DNA of 11,846 nt from a virus (Duplodnaviria > Heunggongvirae > Uroviricota > Caudoviricetes): IMG/VR virus record IMGVR_UViG_2579779084_000004, positions 1 to 11,846 of that record; one strand, written 5' to 3'. Under the pieces are notes generated by a model. It saw only the letters and a list, made by a program, of their open reading frames with translations, did not search any database and was not told the origin of the DNA. Position numbers and translations under genes: made by a program. This document shows, in pieces, positions 1-11,846 of this stretch. Position 1 is the stretch's first letter, and every line of letters begins with the position of its first letter.

Positions 1-176
1 GCGGTTTTTGTCAGTTTTTTGGATGCCAGCAACTGATTGAACATATTTCCTGGTTTGCCACCACCTATATACGACCAACGCCCCCACATCCGTAATTTCC
101 CCTGGATCCAGACGGCTTCCAGCGTTTTTAGACGTAAATGCTCGCCGCTTTTGCCTGTAATTTCCGGGTATATCAT
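1..176 (-). CDS. Partial CDS (N-terminal 58 codons, continues past window start): possible late-gene antiterminator Q-like protein
   Basis: ATG at 176 (minus) reads open to position 1: MIYPEITGKSGEHLRLKTLEAVWIQGKLRMWGRWSYIGGGKPGNMFNQLLASKKLTKT. The WG-W motif and the position immediately downstream of rusA fit lambdoid Q genes. No clear SD; assignment from memory of Q N-termini only. Confidence 0.35.
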   Translation of the reverse strand, partial: MIYPEITGKSGEHLRLKTLEAVWIQGKLRMWGRWSYIGGGKPGNMFNQLLASKKLTKT

Positions 177-184
177 ATTTACGA

Positions 185-550
185 TCACTCACTCTCAATT
201 TTGTAAATCTTCACGCCCAGCCGCCCCCCAGGAACGAGCTGACCGCGCACAATATTGATTTCATCAAACTGCTCGTCGTCTATGAGAAGTCCGGCATGCG
301 TCAGCGCATCCAGTGGTGCTTTCAGGATATTGTCCAGGTCACGACGACGTTTATCCGGTGGCTCTGCAATAATCTTTATCGCCAGCCTTCCGGACAGGTT
401 TAATTTCAGCCGCTGCTGGCGAACAATAAGCGCCACATCACGGCGATAACGCTCACCGGCTTTTGATACAAAATATGTGCTGCCACGACGTCGCCAGTAA
501 GTGTTCACCGTTGGCGGGTAAGGCAAAACAAATTCTATGCGTTCAGTCAT
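185..550 (-). CDS. rusA: RusA-family Holliday junction resolvase (crossover junction endodeoxyribonuclease)
   Basis: 121-aa ORF with ATG start; contains the DKRRRDLDN motif and overall resemblance to E. coli RusA. Its ATG directly abuts the upstream stop (TGAATG), typical nin-region context. Confidence 0.88.
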   Translation of the reverse strand: MTERIEFVLPYPPTVNTYWRRRGSTYFVSKAGERYRRDVALIVRQQRLKLNLSGRLAIKIIAEPPDKRRRDLDNILKAPLDALTHAGLLIDDEQFDEINIVRGQLVPGGRLGVKIYKIESE

Positions 551-1609
551 TCATGCTTTCCACTTCAGGACACCCGAATTTCTCGCGTGCATTAAAAAAC
601 GAATCAGCAACAACAGCTGGCTGCCGTGTTTTTCTTCAAAATCTTTTACCCCGGCGTGTAGTTCGCTATGGCATTTACGGCACAGCGGAATAACAAACAA
701 ATCATCAGCCTTTGTTCCCATCCCTCCCAGTCCATGACCCATGATATGATGCGGATCATCTGCCTGATTGCCACACGTCATGCATTTCTGCGTTTTTACC
801 CAACGCGTGTATACAGGCATCTCTTCCCGTTGTGGTTTCTGGCGCTGGAGATACTGAGCCGGTGACTCCGGATCAACGGCAATGCTGACCACCGTCTTTT
901 CCTGTGGTGGATTCTGTTGCTGGTGGGCGTGAGGCAACGGCGCAATATTTTTTGTGCGCTGCTTCAGTATGCTGATGGCGGTCTGCTCTCCCGGTACGAT
1001 GTCGCTCTCGCGGTATACTGAGCGGATTTTTTCACCCGGAAGCTTCAGGATTCGACGCGCCATATTTTCGGTCATGGCATCCACTACATCATTTACAGAA
1101 GCCCAGCAGCACAATTCAGCCAGCGATAATTCCCGCTCCTGCGTGCCATTCACTGCATGGCGTATGACGTCAATCATCCATGCTGACAGGTTTTGATGAG
1201 CAAGTTGCCCGAGTGATTCGGAGGTCTGGTCACGCAGCTGGTTGTCGCAGTGCCAGCACAACACCATTGCGCCGATACCATAACGATGTATGACGGTTTC
1301 GCTGTGATGATAATCGCCGTGTGGCCACTGGCAGGATTTAACGTGGCGTAACAGCCAGTCAGACAGCGCACCAGCACCGCCAGCAGCACGAATCACCCGC
1401 TCATCGCTGAAAAATGGCAGTAGTGATTTATCCTCCGCCAATGGCTGGCGAACGGCAGGAACGACTCCGGACGGCAGACCGCGCATGCTTTTCGGTTCCG
1501 GCTCCACCAGTACACGACCGCTGCGGAATACCTGCATGGATTCACGACCAGGCTTAAGGACCACCAGCCCAAGTTCCGGTACCGGAACAGATCGAAGTAA
1601 TACCCGCAC
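551..1609 (-). CDS. DUF968-like phage protein with Cys/His-rich (HNH/zinc-finger-like) segment
   Basis: 352-aa ORF with GTG start at 1609 preceded by GGAGG at 4-5 nt spacing. Contains CMTCGN...HHIMGHG...CRKCHSELH; sits immediately upstream of rusA as DUF968 genes do in E. coli prophages. Confidence 0.65.
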   Translation of the reverse strand: MRVLLRSVPVPELGLVVLKPGRESMQVFRSGRVLVEPEPKSMRGLPSGVVPAVRQPLAEDKSLLPFFSDERVIRAAGGAGALSDWLLRHVKSCQWPHGDYHHSETVIHRYGIGAMVLCWHCDNQLRDQTSESLGQLAHQNLSAWMIDVIRHAVNGTQERELSLAELCCWASVNDVVDAMTENMARRILKLPGEKIRSVYRESDIVPGEQTAISILKQRTKNIAPLPHAHQQQNPPQEKTVVSIAVDPESPAQYLQRQKPQREEMPVYTRWVKTQKCMTCGNQADDPHHIMGHGLGGMGTKADDLFVIPLCRKCHSELHAGVKDFEEKHGSQLLLLIRFLMHARNSGVLKWKA

Positions 1610-1610
1610 G

Positions 1611-1883
1611 TTACCTCCAGAACCGTTGCTGGAATGTGCGGGACGGACGCGGTGGGCGTTCGGAATAAGGGAGTCTGACGTAGATTATCCAGTGACGATA
1701 ATCGAGGCTGAGGGCTTTCTTAATCTCGTATCCGTGTCTGCGGTAGCGCTGAATCAGCCATTCGGCCTGTTCTTCAGTACATGGTGGGTGTTGGTACCAG
1801 TCGGTTTTAAATGCGTGTGAACGCCGCCCATGCCGGATGGCAAGGGCGGTATCAGAATTGTGAAATTTGGTTTTGTGCGCCAT
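1611..1883 (-). CDS. Hypothetical phage nin-region protein (90 aa)
   Basis: ATG at 1883 (MAHKTKFHNSD...), downstream of a terminator hairpin; stop sits 1 nt before the DUF968 GTG. The track's longer GTG start at 2042 would place the terminator inside the gene. No strong SD. Confidence 0.4.
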   Translation of the reverse strand: MAHKTKFHNSDTALAIRHGRRSHAFKTDWYQHPPCTEEQAEWLIQRYRRHGYEIKKALSLDYRHWIIYVRLPYSERPPRPSRTFQQRFWR

Positions 1884-1952
1884 CGGTTGTCTCTGCTGGC
1901 GCAGCAGGTGCCAGTTGTTCAGGCTGGCGTGCGAATTGTAAACCAGAATGCC

Positions 1953-1983
1953 AGGAAAAAACAAAACCCGCCGAAGCGGGTTA
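1953..1983 (-). terminator. Rho-independent terminator (probable 3' end of the hok mRNA)
   Basis: Plus-strand aacccgc-cgaa-gcgggtt (1965-1982) is a 7-bp stem with tetraloop; on the minus strand it is followed by TTTGTTTTTTCC. Lies about 70 nt downstream of the hok stop. Confidence 0.55.
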
Positions 1984-2050
1984 AGTGCGGGTGCGTTGAG
2001 GATGCCTGACTCATCAGAGGTGGCGAGGGATTTCTCCCTCACCTGGTCTC

Positions 2051-2206
2051 TTACTCCTCAGGTTCGTAAGCTGTGAAGACAGCGACCTCCGTCTGGCCGG
2101 TTCGGATTCGTACCTCGCAGAGGTCTTTCCTCGTTACCAGTGCCGTCACTATGACGGTTAAACAGATGACGATCAGGGCGATTAACATCGCCTTTTGCTG
2201 CTTCAT
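2051..2206 (-). CDS. hok: Hok/Gef-family type I toxin (51 aa, HokD/RelF-like membrane peptide)
   Basis: ATG at 2206 gives MKQQKAMLIALIVICLTVIVTALVTRKDLCEVRIRTGQTEVAVFTAYEPEE, which I recognise as Hok family: single TM helix plus the conserved C-terminal TGQTEVAVF motif. Confidence 0.85.
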   Translation of the reverse strand: MKQQKAMLIALIVICLTVIVTALVTRKDLCEVRIRTGQTEVAVFTAYEPEE

Positions 2207-2263
2207 AGCCTGCTTCCCCTTGCCTTTCGGCACGTAAGAGGCTAACCTACATTTGTGAGACAT
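2051..2263 (-). CDS. mok: Mok-like in-frame leader reading frame (70 aa) overlapping hok
   Basis: ATG at 2263 with GAGG 8 nt upstream; the N-terminal extension MSHKCRLASYVPKGKGKQA- is in frame with hok, as in chromosomal mokC/hokC. Confidence 0.45.
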   Translation of the reverse strand: MSHKCRLASYVPKGKGKQAMKQQKAMLIALIVICLTVIVTALVTRKDLCEVRIRTGQTEVAVFTAYEPEE

Positions 2264-2330
2264 AGATTGGGCCTCAGATTAATGTTAAGCGTCTTGCAGG
2301 ACGCGTAATGTTAACTGGGGCTTTTCTCTA
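2230..2330 (+). ncRNA. sok: Sok-like antisense RNA region (boundaries approximate)
   Basis: Inferred from hok/sok architecture: antisense to the hok leader and mok initiation region. A plus-strand TTGCCT...TAACCT promoter-like pair lies near 2219-2247. No clean terminator identified, so ends are uncertain. Confidence 0.3.
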
Positions 2331-2375
2331 TCTGCCTTTTGGTGTTCATGCCTGAGACAGATAGCCTCAAGCACC

Positions 2376-2420
2376 CGCAGTTATTCTACTTAACTAAGAT
2401 TTCCCCGCAAACCGTTTTTG
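2376..2420 (-). promoter_or_regulatory. Probable hok mRNA promoter and 5' end
   Basis: Minus strand reads TTGCGG-16 nt-TAGAAT (-10 at 2383-2388). The predicted transcript start GGGUGCUUGAGGCUAUCUG... resembles the 5' end of R1 hok mRNA as I recall it. Confidence 0.35.
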
Positions 2421-2465
2421 TCCGGCACAGTAAATATCCAACTAAACCAATGGCGTTCGCTGTAT

Positions 2466-2645
2466 TTACCGCCAGTATTCAATGCACATGACCGCCATGA
2501 ACACCCCTAAAAAAAGGGCATTTATATGTCCAAACATTAATATCAAAACATCAATTTTTTCCATATACCTTGCTGTGAAGATGATGGGCATACATGATGC
2601 GAACAACCAGAACGCAACAAACAAAAACTGCAATGCGTTTTTCAT
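2466..2645 (-). CDS. Putative small hydrophobic membrane protein (59 aa) in AT-rich island
   Basis: ATG at 2645 preceded by GGGGG with 4-nt spacing; MKNALQFLFVAFWLFASCMPIIFTARYMEKIDVLILMFGHINALFLGVFMAVMCIEYWR has two hydrophobic stretches. AT-rich codon usage; no homolog recognised. Confidence 0.3.
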   Translation of the reverse strand: MKNALQFLFVAFWLFASCMPIIFTARYMEKIDVLILMFGHINALFLGVFMAVMCIEYWR

Positions 2646-2765
2646 TATTCCCCCTACAATCAATGTGCAATAACATTTAAACACACCTCAATTTGGCCGG
2701 ACATATAAATATCTAAACCAGAAAAAATCACTTACATAGCGTTACAAACTCTTTAGTCTAAATAT

Positions 2766-3281
2766 TCATCGTAAAACATCCTCCACGCTTATCAGTCCAT
2801 TTGGTTTCAGGTAATCCATCGCCTTCTCCGGTAATTTGCAGTCCGGCTGAGCTTTTTTCAGTTGACTGACCAGTCGTTTAACCCACATTGTTAATTCGCT
2901 AACCTGATTGCCGGATGCTGGTGGATTGTCGGCTTTACCCAGAATGGCAGCGCAGCAGGCCTCTCTGAGCACCCAGTCAACAGCATCCTTCCATGCTCCT
3001 GTTTCGACTGGCGGATTCTCACGCTTTACCTGTTCATAAAAGCGCACGGCTTTAACCAGTCCTTCTGATGTCACCGGGACTGGCGGGCCGATGAATAAGG
3101 CCTGAATTTCATAGTTCGGCCTGTCGTTACAATCCTCTTTTGTCGGTACATATTTCCAGTCACCAGCCCACGGCTTCCCCTGAAAGTCTGTAACGTCTTT
3201 TTTCACGTAGCGATATCGCCATGCAACTGGTTTTGCCTGCCCTGCCGTTTCATGCCCTTCCTGATAATTAATCTCGCTCAT
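2766..3281 (-). CDS. Hypothetical phage protein (171 aa)
   Basis: ATG at 3281 overlaps the upstream stop (ATGA); long ORF with normal composition. No family recognised. Confidence 0.55.
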   Translation of the reverse strand: MSEINYQEGHETAGQAKPVAWRYRYVKKDVTDFQGKPWAGDWKYVPTKEDCNDRPNYEIQALFIGPPVPVTSEGLVKAVRFYEQVKRENPPVETGAWKDAVDWVLREACCAAILGKADNPPASGNQVSELTMWVKRLVSQLKKAQPDCKLPEKAMDYLKPNGLISVEDVLR

Positions 3282-3454
3282 TCATCGCCCCACTCATCAC
3301 AATATGCTTCGATCGGAGTTTTTCCTGCTTCATAATCATCACGCCATGCTTCAGCATCAGCAGCACTGCCACCACGTAACTCTGCATAGTCCATTAACAG
3401 TTCATGCCATTCTTCAAAACTGACGTTGTATTTAGTTGAACCAAAATCAGCCAT
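3278..3454 (-). CDS. Small acidic protein (58 aa), absent from the ORF track (below length cutoff)
   Basis: Hand translation from ATG 3454: MADFGSTKYNVSFEEWHELLMDYAELRGGSAADAEAWRDDYEAGKTPIEAYCDEWGDE. GAGGAAG SD lies upstream; start overlaps the upstream stop (ATGGCTGA) and the stop overlaps the next ATG (ATGA). Confidence 0.45.
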   Translation of the reverse strand: MADFGSTKYNVSFEEWHELLMDYAELRGGSAADAEAWRDDYEAGKTPIEAYCDEWGDE

Positions 3455-3629
3455 TTTGTTCTTCCTCTTCGTCTTTTATTTCGTGATATGAGTAATTGCA
3501 GTAGTTAAAGAAAATATCTTTTGCTTCGTCATGTATTTCATCAGGCGTCGCATCATCATCCACTTCGAATTCATCCTCGAAATCTCCACCGGCTATTCCC
3601 GTTTCAATAATTATTTTAAACTTTCGCAT
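3447..3629 (-). CDS. Small highly acidic protein (60 aa; about 20 Asp/Glu against 5 Lys/Arg)
   Basis: ATG at 3629; AGGAGG SD at 3653-3658 is separated from the ATG by a 16-nt GAAA-tetraloop hairpin. Sequence MRKFKIIIETGIAGGDFEDEFEVDDDATPDEIHDEAKDIFFNYCNYSYHEIKDEEEEQNG. Confidence 0.5.
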   Translation of the reverse strand: MRKFKIIIETGIAGGDFEDEFEVDDDATPDEIHDEAKDIFFNYCNYSYHEIKDEEEEQNG

Positions 3630-3636
3630 TTAACTA

Positions 3637-3652
3637 CCGCCCTTTCGGGCGG
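3637..3652 (-). promoter_or_regulatory. Stable hairpin (CCGCCC-GAAA-GGGCGG) between SD and start codon: split ribosome binding site
   Basis: Perfect 6-bp GC stem with GNRA-type loop on the mRNA strand, flanked 5' by AGGAGG and 3' by 7 nt then ATG. Confidence 0.5.
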
Positions 3653-3722
3653 CCTCCTGATGTTCTGAGGGTGCAGAAATCCCTCCGGTTAAGGATTAAA
3701 TTTTTAACAGAGCTAAATTTAA

Positions 3723-4079
3723 TTATTCAGTTCTGGATTTTGTCGCCCTGCGTATCCGCGCTTTCGCGTTACGCTCAATCTGAATTAGCTTTTCTATATT
3801 TTTTCGCCTTTCCCGCTCCTCCTGACGCAAGAGCCTTACATCATCTGCCAGTCTGGTTTCTCTTTTCGCCACAGAGAGCATCCAGTCAAATGGCTCCACA
3901 ACTGCACCGCATATTTTACAGCGGACCTGACGCTCTTTTTCGTCAACCCGGACAGAGGCGTGATGACAATATGGTCTTTCCGATGGCTCATAAAGAAAAT
4001 TAACCTGATTACGAGGGTCATCCTCTTTTACCGGAAATAAAACGATATTGCTTAACTCATCCTCTGGTTTTATTTCCAT
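3723..4079 (-). CDS. Hypothetical protein (118 aa) with Cys/His cluster and basic coiled-coil-like C-terminus
   Basis: ATG at 4079 with GGAGAGGAG upstream; YCHH...CKICG cluster and a C-terminal Arg/Lys/Glu-rich segment. Overlaps the upstream gene by 23 bp. Confidence 0.55.
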   Translation of the reverse strand: MEIKPEDELSNIVLFPVKEDDPRNQVNFLYEPSERPYCHHASVRVDEKERQVRCKICGAVVEPFDWMLSVAKRETRLADDVRLLRQEERERRKNIEKLIQIERNAKARIRRATKSRTE

Positions 4080-4518
4080 GCTCCTCTCCTTTGATGCGAA
4101 TGCCAGCGACGCGTAATGCGTGTTCTAAGTCAATCAGGTAAAGCCAACTGCCATTTTCTTTAGGTATCATGACATGTCGCTCATCTGCATTTATCGGGTG
4201 TCCATATCGAAGGTCGTAGCGAGTCGGTAATTGAACTTCCCGCGCTTCCAGTTCAGCAATACGCTTGCTCCCATCAGAGATAACGCCTTCGTAATACTCA
4301 CGCTGCTCGTTGAGTTGTGATTTTGCTTCTTCCAGTCCATCCAGCAAATCAGCGATAATATCCGCTTCCCGATGACGGATGTGACGCTTAAACGCAGCAA
4401 GAGCCGCATCACAATCCCGTTCAGCATTTGGGCTGTCCGGGATAGCCTGATACCACGCCAGCGTCGACTGATAGTTTTGTGCTGCCTCACGAAGCGCCTC
4501 ATAGTTAACCTCTCTCAT
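4057..4518 (-). CDS. Hypothetical phage early protein (153 aa)
   Basis: ATG at 4518 preceded by AGGAGGTGG; ATGA overlap with the upstream gene. No family recognised with confidence. Confidence 0.55.
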   Translation of the reverse strand: MREVNYEALREAAQNYQSTLAWYQAIPDSPNAERDCDAALAAFKRHIRHREADIIADLLDGLEEAKSQLNEQREYYEGVISDGSKRIAELEAREVQLPTRYDLRYGHPINADERHVMIPKENGSWLYLIDLEHALRVAGIRIKGEEHGNKTRG

Positions 4519-4811
4519 TGAGCCACCTCCTGATAAATCACCGCATGCCCCAGTTTCTCCGCCAGTGCCAGCTCTGCCTTAGCGCCCGCTGACCGCTGCC
4601 AGCCTTTCAGCATGTAAATCGCATCCACACAACGAATCATTGCCATGCAAATATCCATGTAGTGCGGCTGTGTCAGCCCGTCCGGAAGTACTGCCGGGTT
4701 CAAGACTGTATGCCCTTCCCGTTTCAGTTCCTCTTCCGCCTTGTGGAACGCCTCACGGTTGAAATTTTTATACCCGGTCATTGGACCGGCAATATAAACT
4801 CTCACCCTCAC
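4515..4811 (-). CDS. DUF4406-like protein (nucleoside 2-deoxyribosyltransferase-like fold), 98 aa
   Basis: GTG start at 4811 (GTGA overlap with upstream stop); N-terminal YIAGPMTG...NF..F...AEE.L...GH.V.NPA pattern recalled for DUF4406 proteins. Confidence 0.55.
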   Translation of the reverse strand: MRVRVYIAGPMTGYKNFNREAFHKAEEELKREGHTVLNPAVLPDGLTQPHYMDICMAMIRCVDAIYMLKGWQRSAGAKAELALAEKLGHAVIYQEVAQ

Positions 4812-5125
4812 TCCTGAACTCTCCTGTCGAAATAAACGTAGTTATTCACTGTGCGCAACGGCATTCCAAATTTTCTGGCGATTTCTCTCCTGGGTACGCC
4901 ACGCTGATGCAGCTGTCGCGCCAGTTCAATATCACTCTGCGGATATTTTGTTGACTGGTGATAATCACCCCGTAACATCAGGCTGACACCCAGTTCCCGC
5001 GCTTTCGTTCTGACAGCATCACCTGTACGACCGGTCAGCCTCCCAATGCTTTCGACCGTCATCGTTCCCGCACACTGCCGGAGTATCATGATTTCAGCCT
5101 CGTACCACTTCTTCCAGCCACTCAC
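4808..5125 (-). CDS. Small helix-turn-helix DNA-binding protein (105 aa)
   Basis: GTG start at 5125 (GTGA overlap) with GGAGAG upstream; HTH-like segments [21 protein letters not shown] and [19 protein letters not shown]. Confidence 0.5.
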
Positions 5126-5883
5126 CGCTGCAGCTCTCCGGTCGCGGTAATATCACGAAGAATATCCCGGTGCTTGTTCAGCTCCCGCAGCGCGGCGCAG
5201 ACTCGTTCCCACTTCTGGACATGACTTTTCGCCCGACGCAGTTCGAGGTTTGCCATATGCAGCGATGGTAAAATCAGGTCATCCGCTCGCGTTTCAGTAA
5301 ACGATGGCAGCGACTGCACAATGCCCGCTACAGTTTCTGTTTTAATTTCTTCCTGTGTTGCGGCTTCCCGGACTGGTAACGCAACACCTGCTGGCTGAGG
5401 AAAGGCCTTACCATCATTTTCCGTTACCGATGCTGCTTTCGGCTCTGCTGGTAAATTACCGCCCGGCATGCAGTAACGAAATTTACCGCTCTGATTAACG
5501 CGTGCCAGCCGCCCCGTTGCAGTTACCACCGCCAGCGTGGAAGCAACCTTGCGAGTACTGATGCCGAACTTACCCGCCAGTTCCTCACACGTTTTAGCCC
5601 CATCCTGACCGATAAACTCAATCATCATGTCTGCTGTAACTTTTTGTTCGACCTCCCCGGTCAGCATATCCTGTGCTTCAGATTTTACTGGCCGCTCTTC
5701 GGTTACCAGGGATTCACTTTCGCCAGCCAGAAACCAGGTGTGACCAGTTTTATCAACGACGCCATTTCTTTTGAGTTCCCACAGCTCGTTGAGAACCTCT
5801 TCACGACTGATATCAAGTCGCGCGGCCAGTTCTACCGATGTGGCTTTTCCCATTGCTTTCAGTGCGTCAAAAACGGTTTCCAT
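5122..5883 (-). CDS. Phage protein with tandem winged-helix-like segments (253 aa; DUF977/DUF1627-like, occupying the Rac ydaW position)
   Basis: ATG at 5883 with GGAGGAAA SD 5 nt upstream; two HTH-like segments ([27 protein letters not shown] and [23 protein letters not shown]). Family name uncertain. Confidence 0.6.
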
Positions 5884-5904
5884 TAAAATTTCCTCCGGAC
5901 AAAA

Positions 5905-6651
5905 TTACTTCACAACCCTCAGGTGTCTGACATTCGAACGCCAGCTCTCCCAGTTAAAATTCACCCAGCGACCACCGTTCATGACCATGCGGTCCATCAC
6001 ACGCTCGCCAAGAAGCGTACTCATCGCTACGTGGTTCAGGTTCGTCAGCATTCCGACACTACGCATCGAAGCCGTTCTGCGGTCGACTATCTGGTTCAGT
6101 GTGACCTGCTCGTTGCGCGTATCCCGCTGCATTCCGATTTCATCCAGGACAAGCAGGTCAACATCACACAACCCCTGTAAAAATTTTTCGCCTGAGTTTT
6201 TGTTGTCGTAGCTGTTGTGTAACGCCAGCATCACATCAGCCACCGTTATCACAATCACGCTGCGACCTTTCGCCAGAAGATGATTGCCAATGGCGGCTGC
6301 AAGGTGGTTCTTTCCGGTACCCGGCTTACCGCTGAACACAAAATTCGTGCACCCGGTCATCAGTTCGTCAGCGATGGATTTTGCCTGGCTCAGCGCATGT
6401 TTTTGCCCGTCGTTCTGCACCTGATAATTCGCAAACGAGCATTTGCTGTGCAGAGGCTGGATGCCCGAACGATTCAGGATTTTTTCCACCCGCAACTGGC
6501 GATTCTGGCGGTTGATCTCCTCGCTACGTTTTCGCCCTTCTGCCAGTTGCCACTCGCGCCACTCGTCCACTGTCCGGTACGGCGCGATTACATGCTGCGG
6601 GGTCAGCTTACGGATACGCTCAAGAACACCACCTGTCGCGATATTTTTCAT
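5905..6651 (-). CDS. DnaC-like replicative helicase loader (AAA+ ATPase; Rac YdaV-like)
   Basis: 248-aa ORF with Walker A GKPGTGKNHLA and Walker B LLVLDEIG; resembles DnaC/IstB-type loaders and sits immediately downstream of the initiator gene. Confidence 0.88.
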   Translation of the reverse strand: MKNIATGGVLERIRKLTPQHVIAPYRTVDEWREWQLAEGRKRSEEINRQNRQLRVEKILNRSGIQPLHSKCSFANYQVQNDGQKHALSQAKSIADELMTGCTNFVFSGKPGTGKNHLAAAIGNHLLAKGRSVIVITVADVMLALHNSYDNKNSGEKFLQGLCDVDLLVLDEIGMQRDTRNEQVTLNQIVDRRTASMRSVGMLTNLNHVAMSTLLGERVMDRMVMNGGRWVNFNWESWRSNVRHLRVVK

Positions 6652-6657
6652 GGCCCG

Positions 6658-7623
6658 TTACCCCCTGAACCCCGGCGGAATTTCGGTATCCGGCTCAGAA
6701 ATATGATTCACGCAACGCTGTACAGACGAACGCCCCAGGCGGATAACCAGTTCATCCCATTTTTCGCGAAGCTTTGACGGACTCATGATATTTTTTACCC
6801 AGAATGGATCCCGCTGCGCCCGACCAAACATTTCACAAATTTGTCTGTGAGTTCTGCCATCCAGCATCCGCATTGTGCGCACGTCGTTGGCCCATGCGGT
6901 CCAGTTGGGTTCTTTCGGTCGCGAAATCTCGCCATCATCGCTGGCGGCCTGCTCGTAAAGACTCACGATTCGTCCCCAGATCCACTGCGCACACGCCAAA
7001 TCTTCCTGGTTGCCCCACTGGCGTTTTTTTGCACTGAACACAACCGCGTCAGGGTGTCGGGTTAAAAAATCCTGTTCAACCGTCTGCGGGTCCGGTTGCG
7101 AAGCTTCCGGACGAGAAGTGTTTTTATTCTCTGTAGTAATCTCTGTTGTATTCTCTGTAAGATCATCAGGCCATTTTGACCCGATGACATTGAGTCGTTT
7201 TGAACCAATGGAACGTGCCATTTTGGCCCCTTCCATCGTGTCATTCTGACCTGATGGAGCAGCGCATTTTGACCTGATGGATTCGCTCACTTTGCCACCA
7301 TTTAAAAGCTCGCTCTCGTAATTAATCGTGTAAAAATTAGTCATATCACGCTTTGATTTATTGAGCTTTTCGCAACGCAAAAGCCCCAGCGTTTTCAGAC
7401 TTGCAAATGCGCGTTTTAACGTTGACTCTGACCAGAACGGGAACTGCTCCAGCCATTGTTCTGTTGTGTTATAAATCCAGCGAACACCATCACATTCCAT
7501 GCCGGAACCGGTATCTCTCAACCAGTAATGCAACTGCTGCAACACGATGGCTTCGTTCAGACCAATTTTCATCGCCAGCTGCGTGTTTATAACCAGCGGA
7601 CGTTCAGCAAAAAGGAGCTTCAT
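6658..7623 (-). CDS. Replication initiation protein (lambda O-like replisome organizer), 321 aa
   Basis: ATG at 7623 (MKLLFAERPLVINTQLAMKIGLNEAIVLQQLHYWL, typical phage replisome-organizer N-terminus). The central low-complexity region is encoded by DNA iterons; the C-terminal domain precedes the DnaC-like gene. Confidence 0.78.
   Translation of the reverse strand: MKLLFAERPLVINTQLAMKIGLNEAIVLQQLHYWLRDTGSGMECDGVRWIYNTTEQWLEQFPFWSESTLKRAFASLKTLGLLRCEKLNKSKRDMTNFYTINYESELLNGGKVSESIRSKCAAPSGQNDTMEGAKMARSIGSKRLNVIGSKWPDDLTENTTEITTENKNTSRPEASQPDPQTVEQDFLTRHPDAVVFSAKKRQWGNQEDLACAQWIWGRIVSLYEQAASDDGEISRPKEPNWTAWANDVRTMRMLDGRTHRQICEMFGRAQRDPFWVKNIMSPSKLREKWDELVIRLGRSSVQRCVNHISEPDTEIPPGFRG
7172..7375. 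repeat. Probable origin of replication: five ~23-bp-spaced iterons plus adjacent AT-rich segment, inside the initiator gene
   Basis: Direct repeats of consensus CATTTTGACC(Y)GATGGA starting at 7172, 7196, 7219, 7242 and 7265, followed by an AT-rich stretch around 7300-7375. Confidence 0.6.
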
Positions 7624-7643
7624 CCCCCCCCCAGAACACGTTA

Positions 7644-8069
7644 TCAATGCGCCACCACGGCATTTCCCGCCGGACCACCACGATTCATCTGATCGAACAA
7701 CACGATCGCTGCCGCAACAAACTCATCGATATCTTTCACCAGGCGCTCCCGTCGCTCGACAAGCTCCCGGTGATATTCCGAACTGTGGCTGCGCATTCGG
7801 GCCACCAGTGGAGGCGGCATTGCTTTTTCGATCGCCGGTAACAACGCCTGAATTTTTTTAACCGCATCAGGGGTGTCTTTTTCTACCCAGCGGAAAATTT
7901 TCTGGGTATTACGAGACAGGGCTTCCGGATGGCTGTCGTCATACAGTTCAGGAAACGTCATCCCCAGTTCGAAATAAGTCCGGGCTATTTCAGCTGCAGG
8001 AACTTTCTCACCATCAGGGTATGCCCAGGCATTCATCGCCATGCGGATGTGCTCATGTTTGATTTTCAT
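7644..8069 (-). CDS. ydaT: YdaT-like protein (CII-like regulator of Rac-type prophages)
   Basis: 141-aa ORF beginning MKIKHEHI, which I recall as the Rac YdaT N-terminus; immediately downstream of the Cro-like gene. Confidence 0.75.
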   Translation of the reverse strand: MKIKHEHIRMAMNAWAYPDGEKVPAAEIARTYFELGMTFPELYDDSHPEALSRNTQKIFRWVEKDTPDAVKKIQALLPAIEKAMPPPLVARMRSHSSEYHRELVERRERLVKDIDEFVAAAIVLFDQMNRGGPAGNAVVAH

Positions 8070-8376
8070 GAATCATTTGCCTCTTGATGCTTCGGGTATG
8101 ATCGTTTTCGTCATTTGGTTGCTTCATCGACATATTCTGCGAATAACATGACGAGCGTCGTAAGTATGTCCAATCAACATCAGGACGAAGTTCTTCACAC
8201 AGGACACCACCTTTTGTTGCTCGTTCAATCGCAGGACATCTCTCAGCAGGTAACTGACGTACACCTTTGATCCATTGATTTACGCTTGGAGGAGATACAC
8301 CTAAAAGCCTAGCCATTGCTGATTGCCCACCGACAACAGCACAAGCTCGTTTGAATGAATAGTTATCTTTTTTCAT
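8053..8376 (-). CDS. ydaS: YdaS-like Cro-type HTH repressor
   Basis: ATG at 8376 with GGAG 8 nt upstream; MKKDNYSFKRACAVVGGQSAMARLLGVSPPSVNQWIKGVRQLPAERCPAIERATKG closely resembles Rac YdaS. Divergent from the CI-like gene. Confidence 0.8.
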   Translation of the reverse strand: MKKDNYSFKRACAVVGGQSAMARLLGVSPPSVNQWIKGVRQLPAERCPAIERATKGGVLCEELRPDVDWTYLRRSSCYSQNMSMKQPNDENDHTRSIKRQMIHENQT

Positions 8377-8403
8377 CGAATGAACTCCAAAAAACACGCA
8401 ACA

Positions 8404-8474
8404 ATATTAGGCTTAGCCTAATGAAATTGTCAATAGGCTAAGCCTAATACATCGGGAGTAGGGATTGCCTAACG
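8404..8474. promoter_or_regulatory. Divergent immunity control region: three 17-bp palindromic operators (TTAGGC-N3-GCCTAA) overlapping a PR-like promoter for ydaS and the racR promoter
   Basis: Operators at 8406-8422 (perfect palindrome ATTAGGCTTAGCCTAAT), 8432-8448 and 8458-8474 (one mismatch). Minus-strand promoter: -35 TTGACA (8428-8433), 18-bp spacer, -10 TAATAT (8404-8409). Confidence 0.6.
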
Positions 8475-8500
8475 CGATGCGCATAGGAGACTATTAAGCA

Positions 8501-8977
8501 ATGCTTAGTGGTAAAGACTTAGGCCGAGCGATAGAGCAGGCCATTAACAAAAAAATTGCATCAGGAGCCGTCAAATCAAAGGCGGAAATCGCACGTCATT
8601 TCAAAGTCCAACCACCATCAATCCATGACTGGATTAAGAAAGGTTCGATAAGTAAAGACAAACTTCCAGAACTATGGCGTTTCTTTTCTGATGTGGTTGG
8701 TCCAGAGCATTGGGGGCTTAACGAATACCCCATACCAACCCCATCCACTTCAGATACAAAAAGTGAACTTTTAGACATAAACAGCCTTTATCAAGCCGCC
8801 TCTGATGAAAAAAGAGCAATTGTGGCTTTCATCTTATCTGGAAATGCTACGGAGCCTAGTTGGGTTGATCATGACGTTCGCGCCTACATTGCCGCAATGG
8901 AAATGAAGGTAGCTAACTATCTGAAAAATCAAGAATCAAAACGGAAAAGCCAGAACATCACCAAGACAGGAACTTAA
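8501..8977 (+). CDS. racR: RacR-like prophage repressor (CI-like, 158 aa)
   Basis: MLSGKDLGRAIEQAINKKIASGAVKSKAEIARHFKVQPPSIHDWIKKGSISKDKLPELW... matches Rac RacR as I recall it; N-terminal HTH; AGGAG SD upstream; divergent from the Cro-like gene. Confidence 0.82.
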   Translation: MLSGKDLGRAIEQAINKKIASGAVKSKAEIARHFKVQPPSIHDWIKKGSISKDKLPELWRFFSDVVGPEHWGLNEYPIPTPSTSDTKSELLDINSLYQAASDEKRAIVAFILSGNATEPSWVDHDVRAYIAAMEMKVANYLKNQESKRKSQNITKTGT

Positions 8978-9070
8978 ACTTATATGGTCCGACGGGAAAT
9001 TCCTAGTTCCCGTTAGTTAACTCCTACTACCTCTTCCACAAACCATCACCTATTAGGTTGCGCCCAAATT

Positions 9071-9114
9071 ATTAGGCATAGCCTATTGACAAGTAATTAG
9101 GCATTTCCTATAGT
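9071..9114 (+). promoter_or_regulatory. PL-like early promoter with overlapping operators
   Basis: -35 TTGACA (9086-9091), 17-bp spacer, -10 TATAGT (9109-9114). Operator ATTAGGCATAGCCTATT (9071-9087) overlaps the -35; a second copy (9095-9111) overlaps the spacer/-10; a degenerate third lies near 9051-9067. Confidence 0.65.
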
Positions 9115-9295
9115 TTTCCCATACCAACCCATCCCGTCCCACACAATACAGGGCAATACCTCGAGTTACCAGGCAGTGGTCAGGGGTTAAGTAGCCAGCC
9201 CGAGGCGTAAGAACATGACGGCAGGGTTCAACTTTAATAACTATGCAGCAGGTTTTTGTTCCGCTACCCCGGCGTTAAGGGGAAATGAGGTCAAC

Positions 9296-9451
9296 ATGGA
9301 TACTATCGATCTTGGCAACAACGAATCTCTGGTATGTGGCGTGTTCCCCAACCAGGACGGTACGTTCACCGCGATGACGTATACCAAAAGCAAAACGTTT
9401 AAAACCGAAAATGGTGCCCGTCGCTGGCTGGAAAGAAACTCAGGTGAGTGA
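9296..9451 (+). CDS. ydfA: Small protein, YdfA/YdaF-like (DUF1391-type, 51 aa)
   Basis: ATG at 9296 with GAGG 6 nt upstream; MDTIDLGNNESLVCGVFPNQDGTFTAMTYTKSKTFKTENGARRWLERNSGE. First gene after the PL-like promoter, as in the Qin dicB operon. An in-frame ATG at 9215 would give a 78-aa alternative. Confidence 0.6.
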   Translation: MDTIDLGNNESLVCGVFPNQDGTFTAMTYTKSKTFKTENGARRWLERNSGE

Positions 9452-9452
9452 T

Positions 9453-9581
9453 ATGGATTTCGACACAATCATGGAAAAGGCTTACGAAGAATACTTCGAA
9501 GGCCTTGCCAAAGGCGAAGAAGCTCTCAGCTTCAGTGAGTTTATACAGGCGCTTTCCAGCTCGGCAAAATCTAACGGCTGA
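9453..9581 (+). CDS. ydfB: Small protein, YdfB/YdaG-like (42 aa), absent from the ORF track
   Basis: Hand translation from ATG 9453: MDFDTIMEKAYEEYFEGLAKGEEALSFSEFIQALSSSAKSNG; AGGTGA SD 5 nt upstream; starts 1 nt after the preceding stop. Confidence 0.55.
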   Translation: MDFDTIMEKAYEEYFEGLAKGEEALSFSEFIQALSSSAKSNG

Positions 9582-9610
9582 TAAGCGAAGCAGCACCGCG
9601 AGGAATCAGT

Positions 9611-9850
9611 ATGCAGAAACGAGAACCCGTCATCATCGCGCCAGACTATACCGATGATGAACTTTATGAGTGGATGCACCAGAAAATTAAGGCTGCGCAG
9701 GACCTGAAATGGGCCAATGAAGCCAGGGCTAAGCAAGCTGAAAATCTGTCCGCTCTGGAGCAGGATATCACCAATCTGGAAAAAGCAGCGGCATTAAGCA
9801 TTGCCAAGAATGATTACATACCCACGTTAATGGCTAACCAACGAGGCTAA
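9611..9850 (+). CDS. Small protein, YdfC-like (79 aa)
   Basis: ATG at 9611 with GAGGAA SD 5 nt upstream; coiled-coil-like AKQAENLSALEQDITNLEKAAA. Position matches ydfC in the Qin dicB operon; length differs from what I recall, so no symbol assigned. Confidence 0.55.
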   Translation: MQKREPVIIAPDYTDDELYEWMHQKIKAAQDLKWANEARAKQAENLSALEQDITNLEKAAALSIAKNDYIPTLMANQRG

Positions 9851-9852
9851 TA

Positions 9853-10260
9853 ATGGAATTTAAAGATTTACCAAAAGAAATCCAGATAATTGCTGCAACG
9901 ACACTCGGTGATAGTCTGCTGAAAATTGACCCGGCATACACCAAAAAAGAAACCATCGATAATATGGTTCGTAATGTGCGCAATGCTTTTTCAGGGCTAT
10001 ATGGTTCTGATAATCAAAAACAGGAAAACGATATTGATGAACGGGTAATTTCTGTTTGCCTGAATGGTCATGTTATTTCAGCAATCAGAACAGAAACGGC
10101 AACTGCTTTTGATTATCTCTGCATGATTCAGAGTCTTGCTGATGTTCTGTTGAAATCAAAAGATTTAGAAAACGATGCAAATTTACAGGGGCGCACAATA
10201 GCACATCCATATGCACATACTTTAGGCTCTGTGGATATCAAAGATCCCACAAATCTTTAA
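9853..10260 (+). CDS. Hypothetical protein (135 aa), AT-rich, no recognised family
   Basis: ATG at 9853 sits 2 nt after the ydfC-like stop with GAGG 6 nt upstream, so it is co-transcribed with the early operon. Composition is markedly more AT-rich than flanking genes. Confidence 0.55.
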   Translation: MEFKDLPKEIQIIAATTLGDSLLKIDPAYTKKETIDNMVRNVRNAFSGLYGSDNQKQENDIDERVISVCLNGHVISAIRTETATAFDYLCMIQSLADVLLKSKDLENDANLQGRTIAHPYAHTLGSVDIKDPTNL

Positions 10261-10471
10261 TGAAATAGTTAACGCGAATTGTACTTGCTCTTTCAGTTGC
10301 TTTCAGAATACGCGTTGAAACTGCTGGCGGTAATTTAGTATTCCATTTATTAAAATCATGCCCGGAAAAGTACTCTTCGAAAATACTTTTAACTGCAGAC
10401 TCGCCTATTGAAATGCTGCTTACCATGCGATTTTGATAAAGGCATTTAGCAATAAGAGTTGATTTTAACAT
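10238..10471 (-). CDS. Hypothetical protein (77 aa), convergent with and overlapping the 3' end of the 135-aa gene
   Basis: ATG at 10471 preceded by AGGAGGG at 4-nt spacing; AT-rich; 23-bp 3' overlap with the plus-strand gene. No family recognised. Confidence 0.45.
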   Translation of the reverse strand: MLKSTLIAKCLYQNRMVSSISIGESAVKSIFEEYFSGHDFNKWNTKLPPAVSTRILKATERASTIRVNYFIKDLWDL

Positions 10472-10794
10472 TCACCCTCCTGAGGGTTGGTAATTAAGGA
10501 GTTCTCCACGGGTGAGGTGGAGTGCGTGCGCCGGACACGGGTGAGCATCCGGCACTGACAGTTTACTGAAAGGATATATCCCTGAAAAGTCAGGGCATAA
10601 CACGAAAGCGTACGGCGAAGGCCTTCACCTATGAGGCTTGTCGTTAAATTTAATTCGACCGTACGCTTCCGGTTGTGGCAATCCGCGAAATGGCGCGGCG
10701 GTAAGTATGGCAGGGGTACTATTCTCCCTCCCCTGTGGAGCACCGGGTTGTCAGGTTGACCATACGCTTAAGTGACAACTCCGCTGCAACAACC

Positions 10795-10857
10795 CATGCT
10801 GATTACCTTTTGGCGGGTATCCGTTTTTTGTTTTCCCTTGTGATACCCGCCCTTTTT
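10795..10857 (+). ncRNA. dicF: DicF-like small RNA (divergent variant) with intrinsic terminator
   Basis: UUUGGCGGGUAUC...GAUACCCGCCCUUUUU forms a 10-bp stem (10812-10821 with 10842-10851) plus U5 tail, resembling the K-12 DicF 3' region as I recall it. Lies about 180 nt upstream of dicB, as in Qin. Confidence 0.5.
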
Positions 10858-11040
10858 AAAGTGAATTTTGTGATGCGGTGAATGCGGCTCAGCGCACGCG
10901 GAACAGTTAAAAAGGCCAGTTGACTTCCGTATTGGTTCTTATGGGTGGGTTCTCTGTATCCGGCGTTAATTGTTAACTGGTTAACGTCACCTGGAGGCAC
11001 CAGGCGCCGCATCACAAAATTCATTGTTGAGGACGCGATA

Positions 11041-11229
11041 ATGGAAACGTTATTACCAAACGTCAATACGTCTGAAGGTTGTTTTGAAATTGGTGTCAGA
11101 ATCAGTAACCCTGTATTTACTGAAGATGCCATTAATAAGAGAAAATACGAACGGGAGCTATTAAATAAAATATGCATTCTTTCAATGCTGGCCCGTTTAC
11201 GCCCGATGCAAAAAGGATACTGGCAATGA
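11041..11229 (+). CDS. dicB: DicB cell-division inhibitor (62 aa)
   Basis: ATG at 11041 with GAGGA SD; METLLPNVNTSEGCFEIGVRISNPVFTEDAINKRKYERELLNKICILSMLARLRPMQKGYWQ is near-identical to K-12 DicB as I recall it. Confidence 0.85.
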   Translation: METLLPNVNTSEGCFEIGVRISNPVFTEDAINKRKYERELLNKICILSMLARLRPMQKGYWQ

Positions 11230-11429
11230 ATACTGCTATTGCCCTCACTCTGACTGTTTTTCTTAATACTGGCGAGCCTGTTGACATGGTTATTAACATT
11301 TACGGTTCAATGAAAGAATGCATAGCTGCCGCAGCAGAACAAAAAATTCCCGGTAACTGCTATCCGGTCGATAAAGTTATTCACATGGATAATAACGAAA
11401 TCCCGGCAGGACTTAAAACAGCGCCGTAA
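11226..11429 (+). CDS. ydfD: YdfD-like small protein (67 aa; hydrophobic N-terminus), translationally coupled to dicB
   Basis: ATG at 11226 overlaps the dicB stop (ATGA); MNTAIALTLTVFLNTGEPVDMVINIYGSMKECIAAAAEQKIPGNCYPVDKVIHMDNNEIPAGLKTAP; position as ydfD in Qin. Confidence 0.55.
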   Translation: MNTAIALTLTVFLNTGEPVDMVINIYGSMKECIAAAAEQKIPGNCYPVDKVIHMDNNEIPAGLKTAP

Positions 11430-11508
11430 TTAATATCCGGTTTCATTTTATATGCCAGCAATGGCAGGGATTTGTTCACCCTTAAATCTGTAATGAGGTT
11501 AAAACAAC

Positions 11509-11846
11509 ATGAGTAAAGTCTTTATTTGCGCCGCTATTCCGGACGAACAGGCAATAAAGGAAGAAGGTGCAGTCGCTGTAGCCACTGCCATTGAAGCTGG
11601 CGACGAACGCCGCGCCCGTGCCAAATTTACCTGGCAATTCCTGGAGCAATATCCGGCTGCTCAGGACTGCGCTTATAAATTTCTTGTTTGCGAGGATAAA
11701 CCCGGTATACCCCGCCCTGCCCTCGATTCCTGGGATGCTGAATATATGCAGGAAAACCGCTGGGATGAGGAGTCAGCTTCCTTTGTCCCGGTTGAGACTG
11801 AATCAGATCCGATGAACGTCACTTTTGACAAGCTGGCCCCTGAAGT
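11509..11846 (+). CDS. Partial CDS (N-terminal 112 codons, runs off window end): probable RecE-like exodeoxyribonuclease VIII
   Basis: ATG at 11509 with GAGG upstream; open to the window end (MSKVFICAAIPDEQAIKEEGAVAVATAIEAGDERRARAKF...). The N-terminus resembles prophage exonuclease VIII annotations as I recall them, and the position matches recE in Rac. Confidence 0.45.
   Translation, partial: MSKVFICAAIPDEQAIKEEGAVAVATAIEAGDERRARAKFTWQFLEQYPAAQDCAYKFLVCEDKPGIPRPALDSWDAEYMQENRWDEESASFVPVETESDPMNVTFDKLAPE

Follow-up and report, generated by a model that had tools for sequence, protein, structure and literature searches.

Several kinds of described system resemble the locus that we present here. 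In the operons of the pore-forming colicins, a small convergent gene is found downstream of an SOS- or repressor-controlled gene, and in phages 186 and P2, as in lambda cII/OOP, convergent promoters form a switch. In this article, we will focus on a pair of small convergent genes, ORF135 and ORF77 (open reading frames, ORFs, encoding 135 and 77 amino acids, aa), which occupies positions 9853-10471 of a stretch of 11,846 nucleotides (IMG/VR record IMGVR_UViG_2579779084_000004, positions 1 to 11,846). This whole stretch, hereafter the window, comes from a lambdoid prophage of Escherichia coli of the DicB/Qin type, in which it corresponds to the immunity and early-left region. The two genes very likely form a real coupled cassette, in which the conserved partner of ORF77 is the C-terminal core of ORF135.

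This architecture invites a comparison with the colicins. As in the pore-forming colicin operons, a larger gene under SOS or repressor control is met tail to tail by a small gene on the opposite strand, presumed to be constitutive, and this likeness is one of architecture only; a polymorphic C-terminal domain is also matched by a cognate small gene. However, there is no sequence or fold similarity, ORF135 carries no colicin domains, and no secretion or lysis logic can be found. The immunity proteins of the colicins are integral inner-membrane proteins, whereas ORF77 is soluble-looking and helical, and ORF77 is more conserved than its partner.

The cassette can also be compared to lambda rexAB-ren, to lambda/P22 sieB-esc and to BstA-aba (PMC8585504), which likewise adjoin a repressor or lie inside a PL operon, and with which it would share the logic of a lysogen-expressed factor that is neutralised during the phage's own lytic growth. 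These systems are co-directional, though, and their effectors are large or membrane proteins, or else a DNA element or an internal start serves as the antidote. A preliminary description of the window, made by a model from the sequence, had drawn the analogy with the rex/sieB location of lambda and the sieB location of Rac. The analogy is right for the genomic position, but it does not extend to homology, as Pfam and PHROG scans gave no match to SieB, RexA or RexB.

Type II toxin-antitoxin (TA) modules and polymorphic toxin-immunity systems (CdiA-CT/CdiI, Rhs) are further relatives in organisation, being two-gene cognate modules and mobile AT-rich cargo. The likeness to CdiA-CT/CdiI and Rhs extends to a conserved N-terminal region followed by swappable C-terminal domains, most of which (4/5) come with their own small neighbour. 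Unlike type II TA genes, the two genes are not bicistronic but convergent, and they overlap in all of the 103 paired loci detailed below; neither a recognisable toxin fold nor an antitoxin DNA-binding domain (ribbon-helix-helix, helix-turn-helix, AbrB or Phd) was found in them. The ORF135-type proteins are far smaller than the polymorphic toxins, and none of their variants (124-212 aa) has a Pfam domain or a signal or delivery module. Convergent units overlapping at their 3' ends within a prophage switch are also those of type I TA loci of Bacillus subtilis (txpA/RatA, bsrG/SR4) and of the phage switches lambda cII/OOP and coliphage 186 pR/pL. Unlike in txpA/RatA and bsrG/SR4, both strands of the cassette encode conserved folded proteins, and there is no small hydrophobic toxin and no non-coding antisense RNA. 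In terms of family, there is direct membership of phrog_1363, phrog_23433 and phrog_10348, which are families of unknown function where the pairing is not recorded.

The cassette thus resembles colicin/immunity, polymorphic toxin-immunity, exclusion and convergent-switch systems by its architecture, and it departs from each of them in the features that define it. Its own geometry is an unusually rigid convergent overlap. A literature search by gene names, accessions and PHROG identifiers found nothing on the pair. It is present in deposited phage genomes (Evi, PPompW prophages), where it is annotated as hypothetical. The PHROG families already exist, but how the two genes pair, how the partner is divided into domains and how the locus varies are not on record in them.

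Conservation of the convergent pair

An ORF77 homologue that converges on, and overlaps, a gene with a partner core was found in 103 of the 113 loci fetched, some contigs having been fetched twice. These paired loci represent 28 distinct ORF77 proteins, 30 distinct partner cores and 37 distinct pairs, and the genera concerned include Escherichia, Serratia, Klebsiella, Dickeya, Proteus, Yersinia, Xenorhabdus and others. The overlap measures 23 bp in 95 of them and 26 bp in six; the remaining two overlap by 20 and 51 bp. The pairing survives at 36-41% identity of ORF77 (loci L126 and L127, with partner-core E-values of 3.5e-20 and 2e-6), and the flanking genes vary while the tail-to-tail geometry stays. 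Partner core and ORF77 are inherited together, 3' end to 3' end, over deep divergence. The preliminary description looked to Rac/Qin-like prophages, but the pair itself is far older and wider than prophages of that type.

Two E. coli contigs (L080/L081) and Photorhabdus (L015) have a broken ORF77 next to an intact partner, and no partner-null allele with an intact ORF77 was seen among the loci examined. In addition, a scan of genome contigs for the cassette gave three loci. A case apart is that of Citrobacter (L118, 4370-4606, minus strand), where a 78-aa ORF77 homologue shares a 51-bp overlap with the gene of a ClpX-zinc-finger partner and is missing from the gene calls of the record, so that small antisense genes of this family are under-annotated.

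ORF77, a conserved small helical protein

ORF77 has homologues of about 77 aa, with 53-71% identity, in Klebsiella, Serratia, Dickeya, Yersinia, Xenorhabdus, Morganella, Salmonella, Proteus and Photorhabdus. Across genera, the length of 77 codons, the start codon and the Shine-Dalgarno (SD) sequence are all kept. Between moderately diverged orthologues, the proportion of synonymous differences (pS) is saturated (0.58-0.78) and that of non-synonymous differences (pN) is about 0.10-0.12, and the pN/pS ratio ranges from 0.13 to 0.20 in the frame of ORF77 and from 0.2 to 3.7 in the three frames of the opposite strand. An exhaustive profile search extends the family to 158 clusters when grouped at 50% identity. 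The representatives listed are mostly stand-alone proteins of 74-80 aa, and the longer ones owe their size to an extension at the N terminus or to an unrelated tail. Trp43 does not vary, and Cys10, Leu11 and Ile71 hardly do. The AlphaFold2 (AF2) model is a compact, all-helical globule of five helices, with a mean predicted local distance difference test score (pLDDT) of 96.6.

One could dismiss ORF77 as an antisense ORF that occurs by chance in AT-rich DNA, with ORF135 as the only gene, as no convincing promoter is recognised for it in the window and as no family annotation is available. This reading is effectively refuted by the conservation data, which show that start, SD and codon length are kept and that 158 clusters share a confidently modelled fold. 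Indeed, the constancy of the 77 codons across genera, together with the low pN/pS at saturated synonymous sites, makes ORF77 more than a chance ORF. ORF135 and ORF77 are both protein-coding genes under selection.

The preliminary description had recognised neither protein, and our profile and structure-based searches likewise matched no annotated family. For ORF77, this concerns Pfam, NCBIfam, PADLOC and PDB sequences; a profile built from 75 family members matched nothing in PDB and Pfam, and Foldseek of the model against BFVD returned only an uncharacterised member of the same family. The direct PHROG match is to phrog_10348 (E = 2.7e-46, 1-77 of 77), and neither ORF135 nor ORF77 matched any family of PADLOC-DB v2.0.0 at E<=1. 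The ORF77 sequence has no hydrophobic stretch of transmembrane length, and no protein in which ORF77 is fused to partner domains was found. A distant member of the family, P0217 (36% identity), is found in L124 (2147-3228, plus strand), where it is co-directional with a preceding gene for a predicted membrane protein of 285 aa, to which it is translationally coupled by a 4-nt overlap. The same small protein may be used differently in this context.

ORF135, a variable domain and a conserved partner core

The preliminary description treated ORF135 as one unit. It was right about the gene, but it overlooked a two-domain build in which only the C-terminal core is the conserved partner of ORF77. 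PHROG matches divide the protein at about residue 55. The whole protein matches phrog_1363 (E = 1e-41, 1-130 of 139), a second partner family, phrog_23433, is matched with E = 3.6e-10, and residues 1-55 match phrog_9419, phrog_2151, phrog_6937 and phrog_33007. The AF2 model (pLDDT 72 overall) shows an N-terminal domain of two helices (8-22 and 32-47, pLDDT about 70), a disordered linker (52-60), and a C-terminal core made of a beta-hairpin (65-79) and helices (85-111) with a pLDDT of about 80. The model has no fold match in PDB, and the sequence has no match in Pfam, NCBIfam, PADLOC or PDB sequences.

The conserved residues of the partner include an LExEAN-SGKT motif. The core can exist by itself. 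In prophages of Serratia, Dickeya and Klebsiella, a stand-alone protein of 77-79 aa converges on the ORF77 homologue, and such proteins align with residues ~60-135 of ORF135 at 34-40% identity. Among the 82 relatives of the core recovered by profile search, the N-terminal addition can be absent, or be the E. coli helical domain, a ClpX-type C4 zinc finger (PF06689) or a YdfC-like coiled coil. The latter is fused in frame to the core in two Yersinia-like prophages (L093 4212-4793 and L094 4212-4823, both on the minus strand, 193 and 203 aa), with BLASTP E-values of 6e-11 to the YdfC of the window and 1e-13 to the ORF135 core. This Rosetta-stone fusion suggests that YdfC is functionally linked to the ORF135 core and works with it.

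Two candidate functions for the partner were discarded. A P-loop (EANASGKT) was rejected by eye, as it departs from the pattern [AG]x4GK[ST], and an N-like antiterminator, considered for the first gene of the PL operon, was dropped because the arginine-rich motif is absent.

A polymorphic site in E. coli

The site was surveyed in 5426 complete E. coli genomes, of which 4332 have the ydfC-dicF backbone. The pair is found in 648 of the 5426 (about 12%), including O157:H7 and many enterotoxigenic (ETEC) strains, and the Prokaryotic Genome Annotation Pipeline (PGAP) calls both ORFs as genes in 646 of the 5426. Most of the remaining backbones show an empty, K-12-like junction, and some hold another two-gene cassette of similar size, so that the idea of a variable cargo is borne out. 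An alignment to K-12 Qin resolves the pair as a clean indel of about 630 bp directly after the ydfC stop, and homology resumes at about 10486, 13 nt upstream of the ORF77 start.

At this site, the N-terminal 55 aa of ORF135 are found on at least five different C-terminal domains. Besides ORF135 itself (135 aa, phrog_1363), which faces ORF77 (77 aa, phrog_10348) with a 23-bp overlap, there is a protein of 201 aa (phrog_1363 over aa 1-130) with a convergent gene of 63 aa (phrog_2605), again with a 23-bp overlap and with the same SD-bearing upstream region as ORF77. A protein of 212 aa (phrog_2151) abuts a convergent gene of 69 aa (phrog_4274), one of 179 aa (phrog_1363 over aa 1-92) overlaps a convergent gene of 80 aa (phrog_10133) by 20 bp, and one of 124 aa (phrog_6937) has no convergent small gene. 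The loci of the alternative cassettes (L115 4001-4775, L119 3001-3849, L120 3001-3763 and L122 3001-3375) are all unannotated. Their proteins have no Pfam domain and gave nothing meaningful in PADLOC, and hhalign found no relation of the 63-, 69- and 80-aa convergent proteins to the ORF77 family. That other C-terminal domains on the same N-terminal domain come with different convergent small genes suggests a cognate-pair logic.

Within E. coli, the N-terminal domain, the core and ORF77 recombine independently. The N-terminal domain has two alleles (pS 0.31, pN/pS 0.75) and so does the core (pS 0.32, pN/pS 0.41-0.43), and ORF77 is nearly identical across alleles whose core differs by about 20%. 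The common 201-aa allele retains the partner core without ORF77.

Predicted expression of the two genes

In prophages of Serratia, Klebsiella, Dickeya and Proteus, the partner lies directly after an S24/CI-type repressor and a PL-like promoter, and in L127 it follows a cro-like gene. In the window, the PL/PdicB-like promoter predicted at 9086-9114 would drive ydfA-ydfB-ydfC-ORF135 and then continue to dicB. The placement of ORF135 behind a repressor-controlled PL-like promoter, as first proposed, thus has a candidate promoter in the window and generalises to other genera. This operon logic is modelled on the K-12 dicBF operon, which is one transcript and in which DicF, DicB and YdfD are toxic (PMC5069750). 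No terminator-like site was predicted on the plus strand before 10812 in a scan of the window, including the 10260-10812 interval, and the gene order implies that the early transcript must cross ORF77 in antisense before it reaches dicB. Outside E. coli, the PL-like promoter adjoins the repressor and has the partner as its first gene, so that ORF77 is always antisense within a repressor-controlled early operon.

The expression of ORF77 itself is less clearly laid out. In at least four genera, Serratia, Klebsiella, Yersinia and Proteus (L002/L007/L013/L084/L085/L087/L093), about 85 nt upstream of the gene are conserved, and this block contains an extended -10 promoter-like motif (TTTTCA-18-TGgTATCTT) with an inverted repeat, ACCAC-N8-10-GTGGT, in its spacer, which is a possible operator. 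In E. coli, the block is replaced by the dicF-leader backbone, which carries an analogous repeat. A standard scan found no ORF77 promoter at 9/12 in the window. Independent transcription of ORF77, as predicted from these motifs, is plausible, though less so in E. coli, where the only candidate is a weak 8/12 match. The 23-bp overlap was also considered as a bidirectional terminator hairpin, which was rejected, as it folds no better than its shuffles (z = 0.01).

Probable antagonism, its polarity and competing explanations

Judging by analogy with the systems mentioned above, we find functional antagonism between the products of ORF77 and of its partner rather probable. The toxin-antidote, exclusion or anti-defence function that the preliminary description held to be plausible would be one drawn from architecture. 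As to which product antagonises the other, we lean, with some hesitation, towards an effector role for ORF77 and an antidote role for its partner. This polarity is favoured because ORF77 is the more constrained of the two, because the partner survives the loss of ORF77 while the converse is unseen, because the partner is the very first early gene, and because it gathers adaptor-like N-terminal modules. Our leading, though tentative, proposal is therefore that of an accessory two-gene cassette of lambdoid prophages, predicted to be wired into the switch between lysogeny and lytic growth, with ORF77 as its effector.

According to this proposal, the early promoter would be off in the lysogen and ORF77 would be made from its own promoter, as a resident effector acting, for example, in exclusion or in host modulation. 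Upon induction, early transcription would run antisense through ORF77 and its promoter and shut it down, while the partner protein, made concurrently, would bind or neutralise the ORF77 protein already present, making lytic growth possible. Convergent transcription would in this way reinforce the expression of the two genes in opposite states, ORF77 in lysogeny and the partner upon induction. In this neutralisation, the helical domain, the ClpX-type zinc finger and the YdfC-like coiled coil that the partner variably carries at its N terminus could serve as oligomerisation or adaptor modules.

Several observations weigh against this account, which is the most economical one and each step of which is inferred. 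The sample is redundant, as 65 of the 103 paired loci are E. coli 135-aa alleles. The persistence of the core in the 201-aa allele indicates some ORF77-independent role, and the near invariance of ORF77 facing core alleles 20% apart disfavours a tight co-evolution of their interface. The L124 relative of ORF77 has no partner core at all. The expression of the effector is also concerned, since the cassette-specific sequence stops 13 nt upstream of the ORF77 ATG and since the best promoter candidate of the relaxed scan, at 8/12, is unconvincing.

The pattern of a polymorphic C-terminal domain with a cognate small gene makes the opposite, colicin-like polarity a serious rival, although we consider it unlikely. 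The early-operon protein would then be a toxic or host-takeover effector made upon induction, and ORF77 a constitutive immunity protein encoded on the opposite strand, which would protect the lysogen when the effector is expressed leakily or when superinfecting relatives bring in the same one. Such a polarity would suit a polymorphic toxin/immunity architecture with one N-terminal domain on at least five C-terminal domains, four of which have their own unrelated convergent small gene, and a small convergent gene placed after an SOS- or repressor-controlled one as in the pore-forming colicin operons. The toxicity of DicF, DicB and YdfD, which come from the same operon, also points that way (PMC5069750). 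However, it sits badly with the tolerance of ORF77-null alleles with an intact partner and of the 201-aa allele without ORF77, with stand-alone partners of 75-80 aa that lack any N-terminal domain, with the absence of a detectable toxin domain, and with an "immunity" protein that is far more conserved than its "toxin". A related and improbable possibility generalises this to the whole site after ydfA/ydfC (in other genera, directly after PL), which would be, in lambdoid prophages, a locus of polymorphic intracellular effectors with cognate antagonists, similar to colicin/immunity, blocking superinfecting relatives of the same allele. A small protein expressed in the lysogen would specifically neutralise the matching early-operon protein, and the prophage's own induction would escape by antisense transcription through the antagonist gene.

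Readings without antagonism between the two proteins are less likely than those with it. Transcription from a convergent ORF77 promoter could act by interference, or as an antisense brake on the early operon, which would keep down leaky read-through into dicF/dicB (recombination genes in other genera), and the proteins would have a minor or regulatory part in the lysis-lysogeny decision. Convergent-promoter switches are established in phages 186, P2 and lambda cII/OOP, ORF77 lay antisense inside the early operon wherever its context was examined, and its conserved upstream element has an operator-like inverted repeat in the promoter spacer. Yet a cis-regulatory device of this kind hardly accounts for the strong purifying selection on the ORF77 protein, its invariant Trp43 and its confident fold, nor does the overlap hold a structured element, and we give it a low probability. 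Just as doubtful is the idea of two unrelated morons that travel together only through adjacency and a common recombination boundary. The region is indeed mosaic, with N-terminal domain, core and ORF77 recombining independently in E. coli, and the partner can be found without ORF77 (201-aa allele), as can a distant ORF77 relative without partner. Nevertheless, 37 distinct pairs from many genera hold to one tail-to-tail geometry, down to 36% identity, and unrelated genes should have separated on that time-scale.

Organisation of the locus and its neighbours

The features of the window that concern the cassette are collected in Table 1. The convergent pair, its coordinates and its overlap are exactly those of the preliminary description, which was also correct about the strong SD of ORF77. 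It had placed ORF135 tightly behind ydfC with an SD of its own, and indeed the ydfC stop (9848-9850) is followed 2 nt later by the ORF135 ATG, with a GAGG at 9843-9846, 6 nt before the ATG. The low GC content, first read as under 40% and lower than that of the surroundings, was computed as 0.368 for 9853-10471 against 0.483 for the whole window, and the GC content at third codon positions is 0.28 in both genes.

Table 1. Position of the cassette and of the neighbouring features in the window.
Feature	Position	Strand	Remarks
cro/YdaS-like gene	8053-8397	-	
Helix-turn-helix repressor gene	8501-8977	+	
PL/PdicB-like sigma-70 promoter	9086-9114	+	Predicted, strong; TTGACA-17-TATAGT, 11/12; between repressor gene and ydfA
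ydfA, ydfB, ydfC	ydfC 9611-9850	+	In this order after the 9086-9114 promoter
ORF135	9853-10260	+	135 aa, ATG start
ORF135 N-terminal domain (aa 1-55)	9853-10017	+	Predicted helical hairpin, shuffled module
ORF135 C-terminal partner core (aa ~61-135)	10033-10260	+	Beta-hairpin and helices
ORF77	10238-10471	-	77 aa, ATG start; family phrog_10348
Dual-coding 3' overlap	10238-10260		23 bp; ORF135 ends ...IKDPTNL*, ORF77 ends ...IKDLWDL*
ORF77 Shine-Dalgarno sequence	10475-10481	-	AGGAGGG (reverse complement), 3-4 nt from ATG
Inverted repeat	10504-10522		CTCCAC-N7-GTGGAG; 33-51 nt upstream of ORF77 ATG, in backbone common to K-12
Candidate ORF77 promoter	10560-10588	-	TTTTCA-17-TAAACT, 8/12, weak; only sigma-70-like candidate in the window
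DicF-slot element	10794-10850	+	Divergent hairpin and U-run; downstream of the pair, outside the cassette
dicB	~11041-11229		Preceded by a structured leader; followed by the DUF1482/ydfD gene

The downstream neighbour, which had been taken for DicF, turned out not to be canonical DicF. DicF (Rfam RF00039) has no match at the gathering threshold, nor at E<=5 over 9000-11846, and the slot holds a divergent allele, in which flanks nearly identical to those of K-12 surround another hairpin and U-run (-14.4 kcal/mol, z -2.8) in place of the 53-nt DicF core. The small RNA of this slot probably differs from K-12 DicF in its seed and its targets, and a third allele of the slot is found in L115. Further downstream, a sub-threshold match to STnc100 (10864-11018, plus strand; 28.5 bits for a gathering score of 47, E 0.0013) lies within the dicB leader, in a stretch conserved with K-12. 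Elsewhere in the window, a type I TA locus of the hok/sok type is found at 2051-2376 on the minus strand. The Rfam sok match there reaches 120 bits for a gathering score of 59, and a Hok-like ORF (…MKQQKAMLIALIVICLTVIVTALVTRKDLCEVRIRTGQTEVAVFTAYEPEE) overlaps it.

Significance

Roughly one complete E. coli genome in eight carries the cassette, and its relatives are found, in many Enterobacterales, at the point of lambdoid prophages where regulation is most sensitive, while both of its proteins are without annotation in every database searched. In pathogenic strains, it alters the 5' context of the dicF/dicB transcript. Should the reading as polymorphic intracellular effectors and antagonists be true, it would constitute a new, allele-specific layer of competition between prophages, based on two folds without known relatives. 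If the two genes are an antagonistic pair, as we think rather probable, they would add a new pair of small-protein families to the repertoire of toxin/antidote or exclusion/self-immunity systems, they would explain why this site is a hotspot where cassettes are swapped in and out, and they would offer a compact model of how a convergent overlap can enforce mutually exclusive expression in the lysogenic and lytic states.

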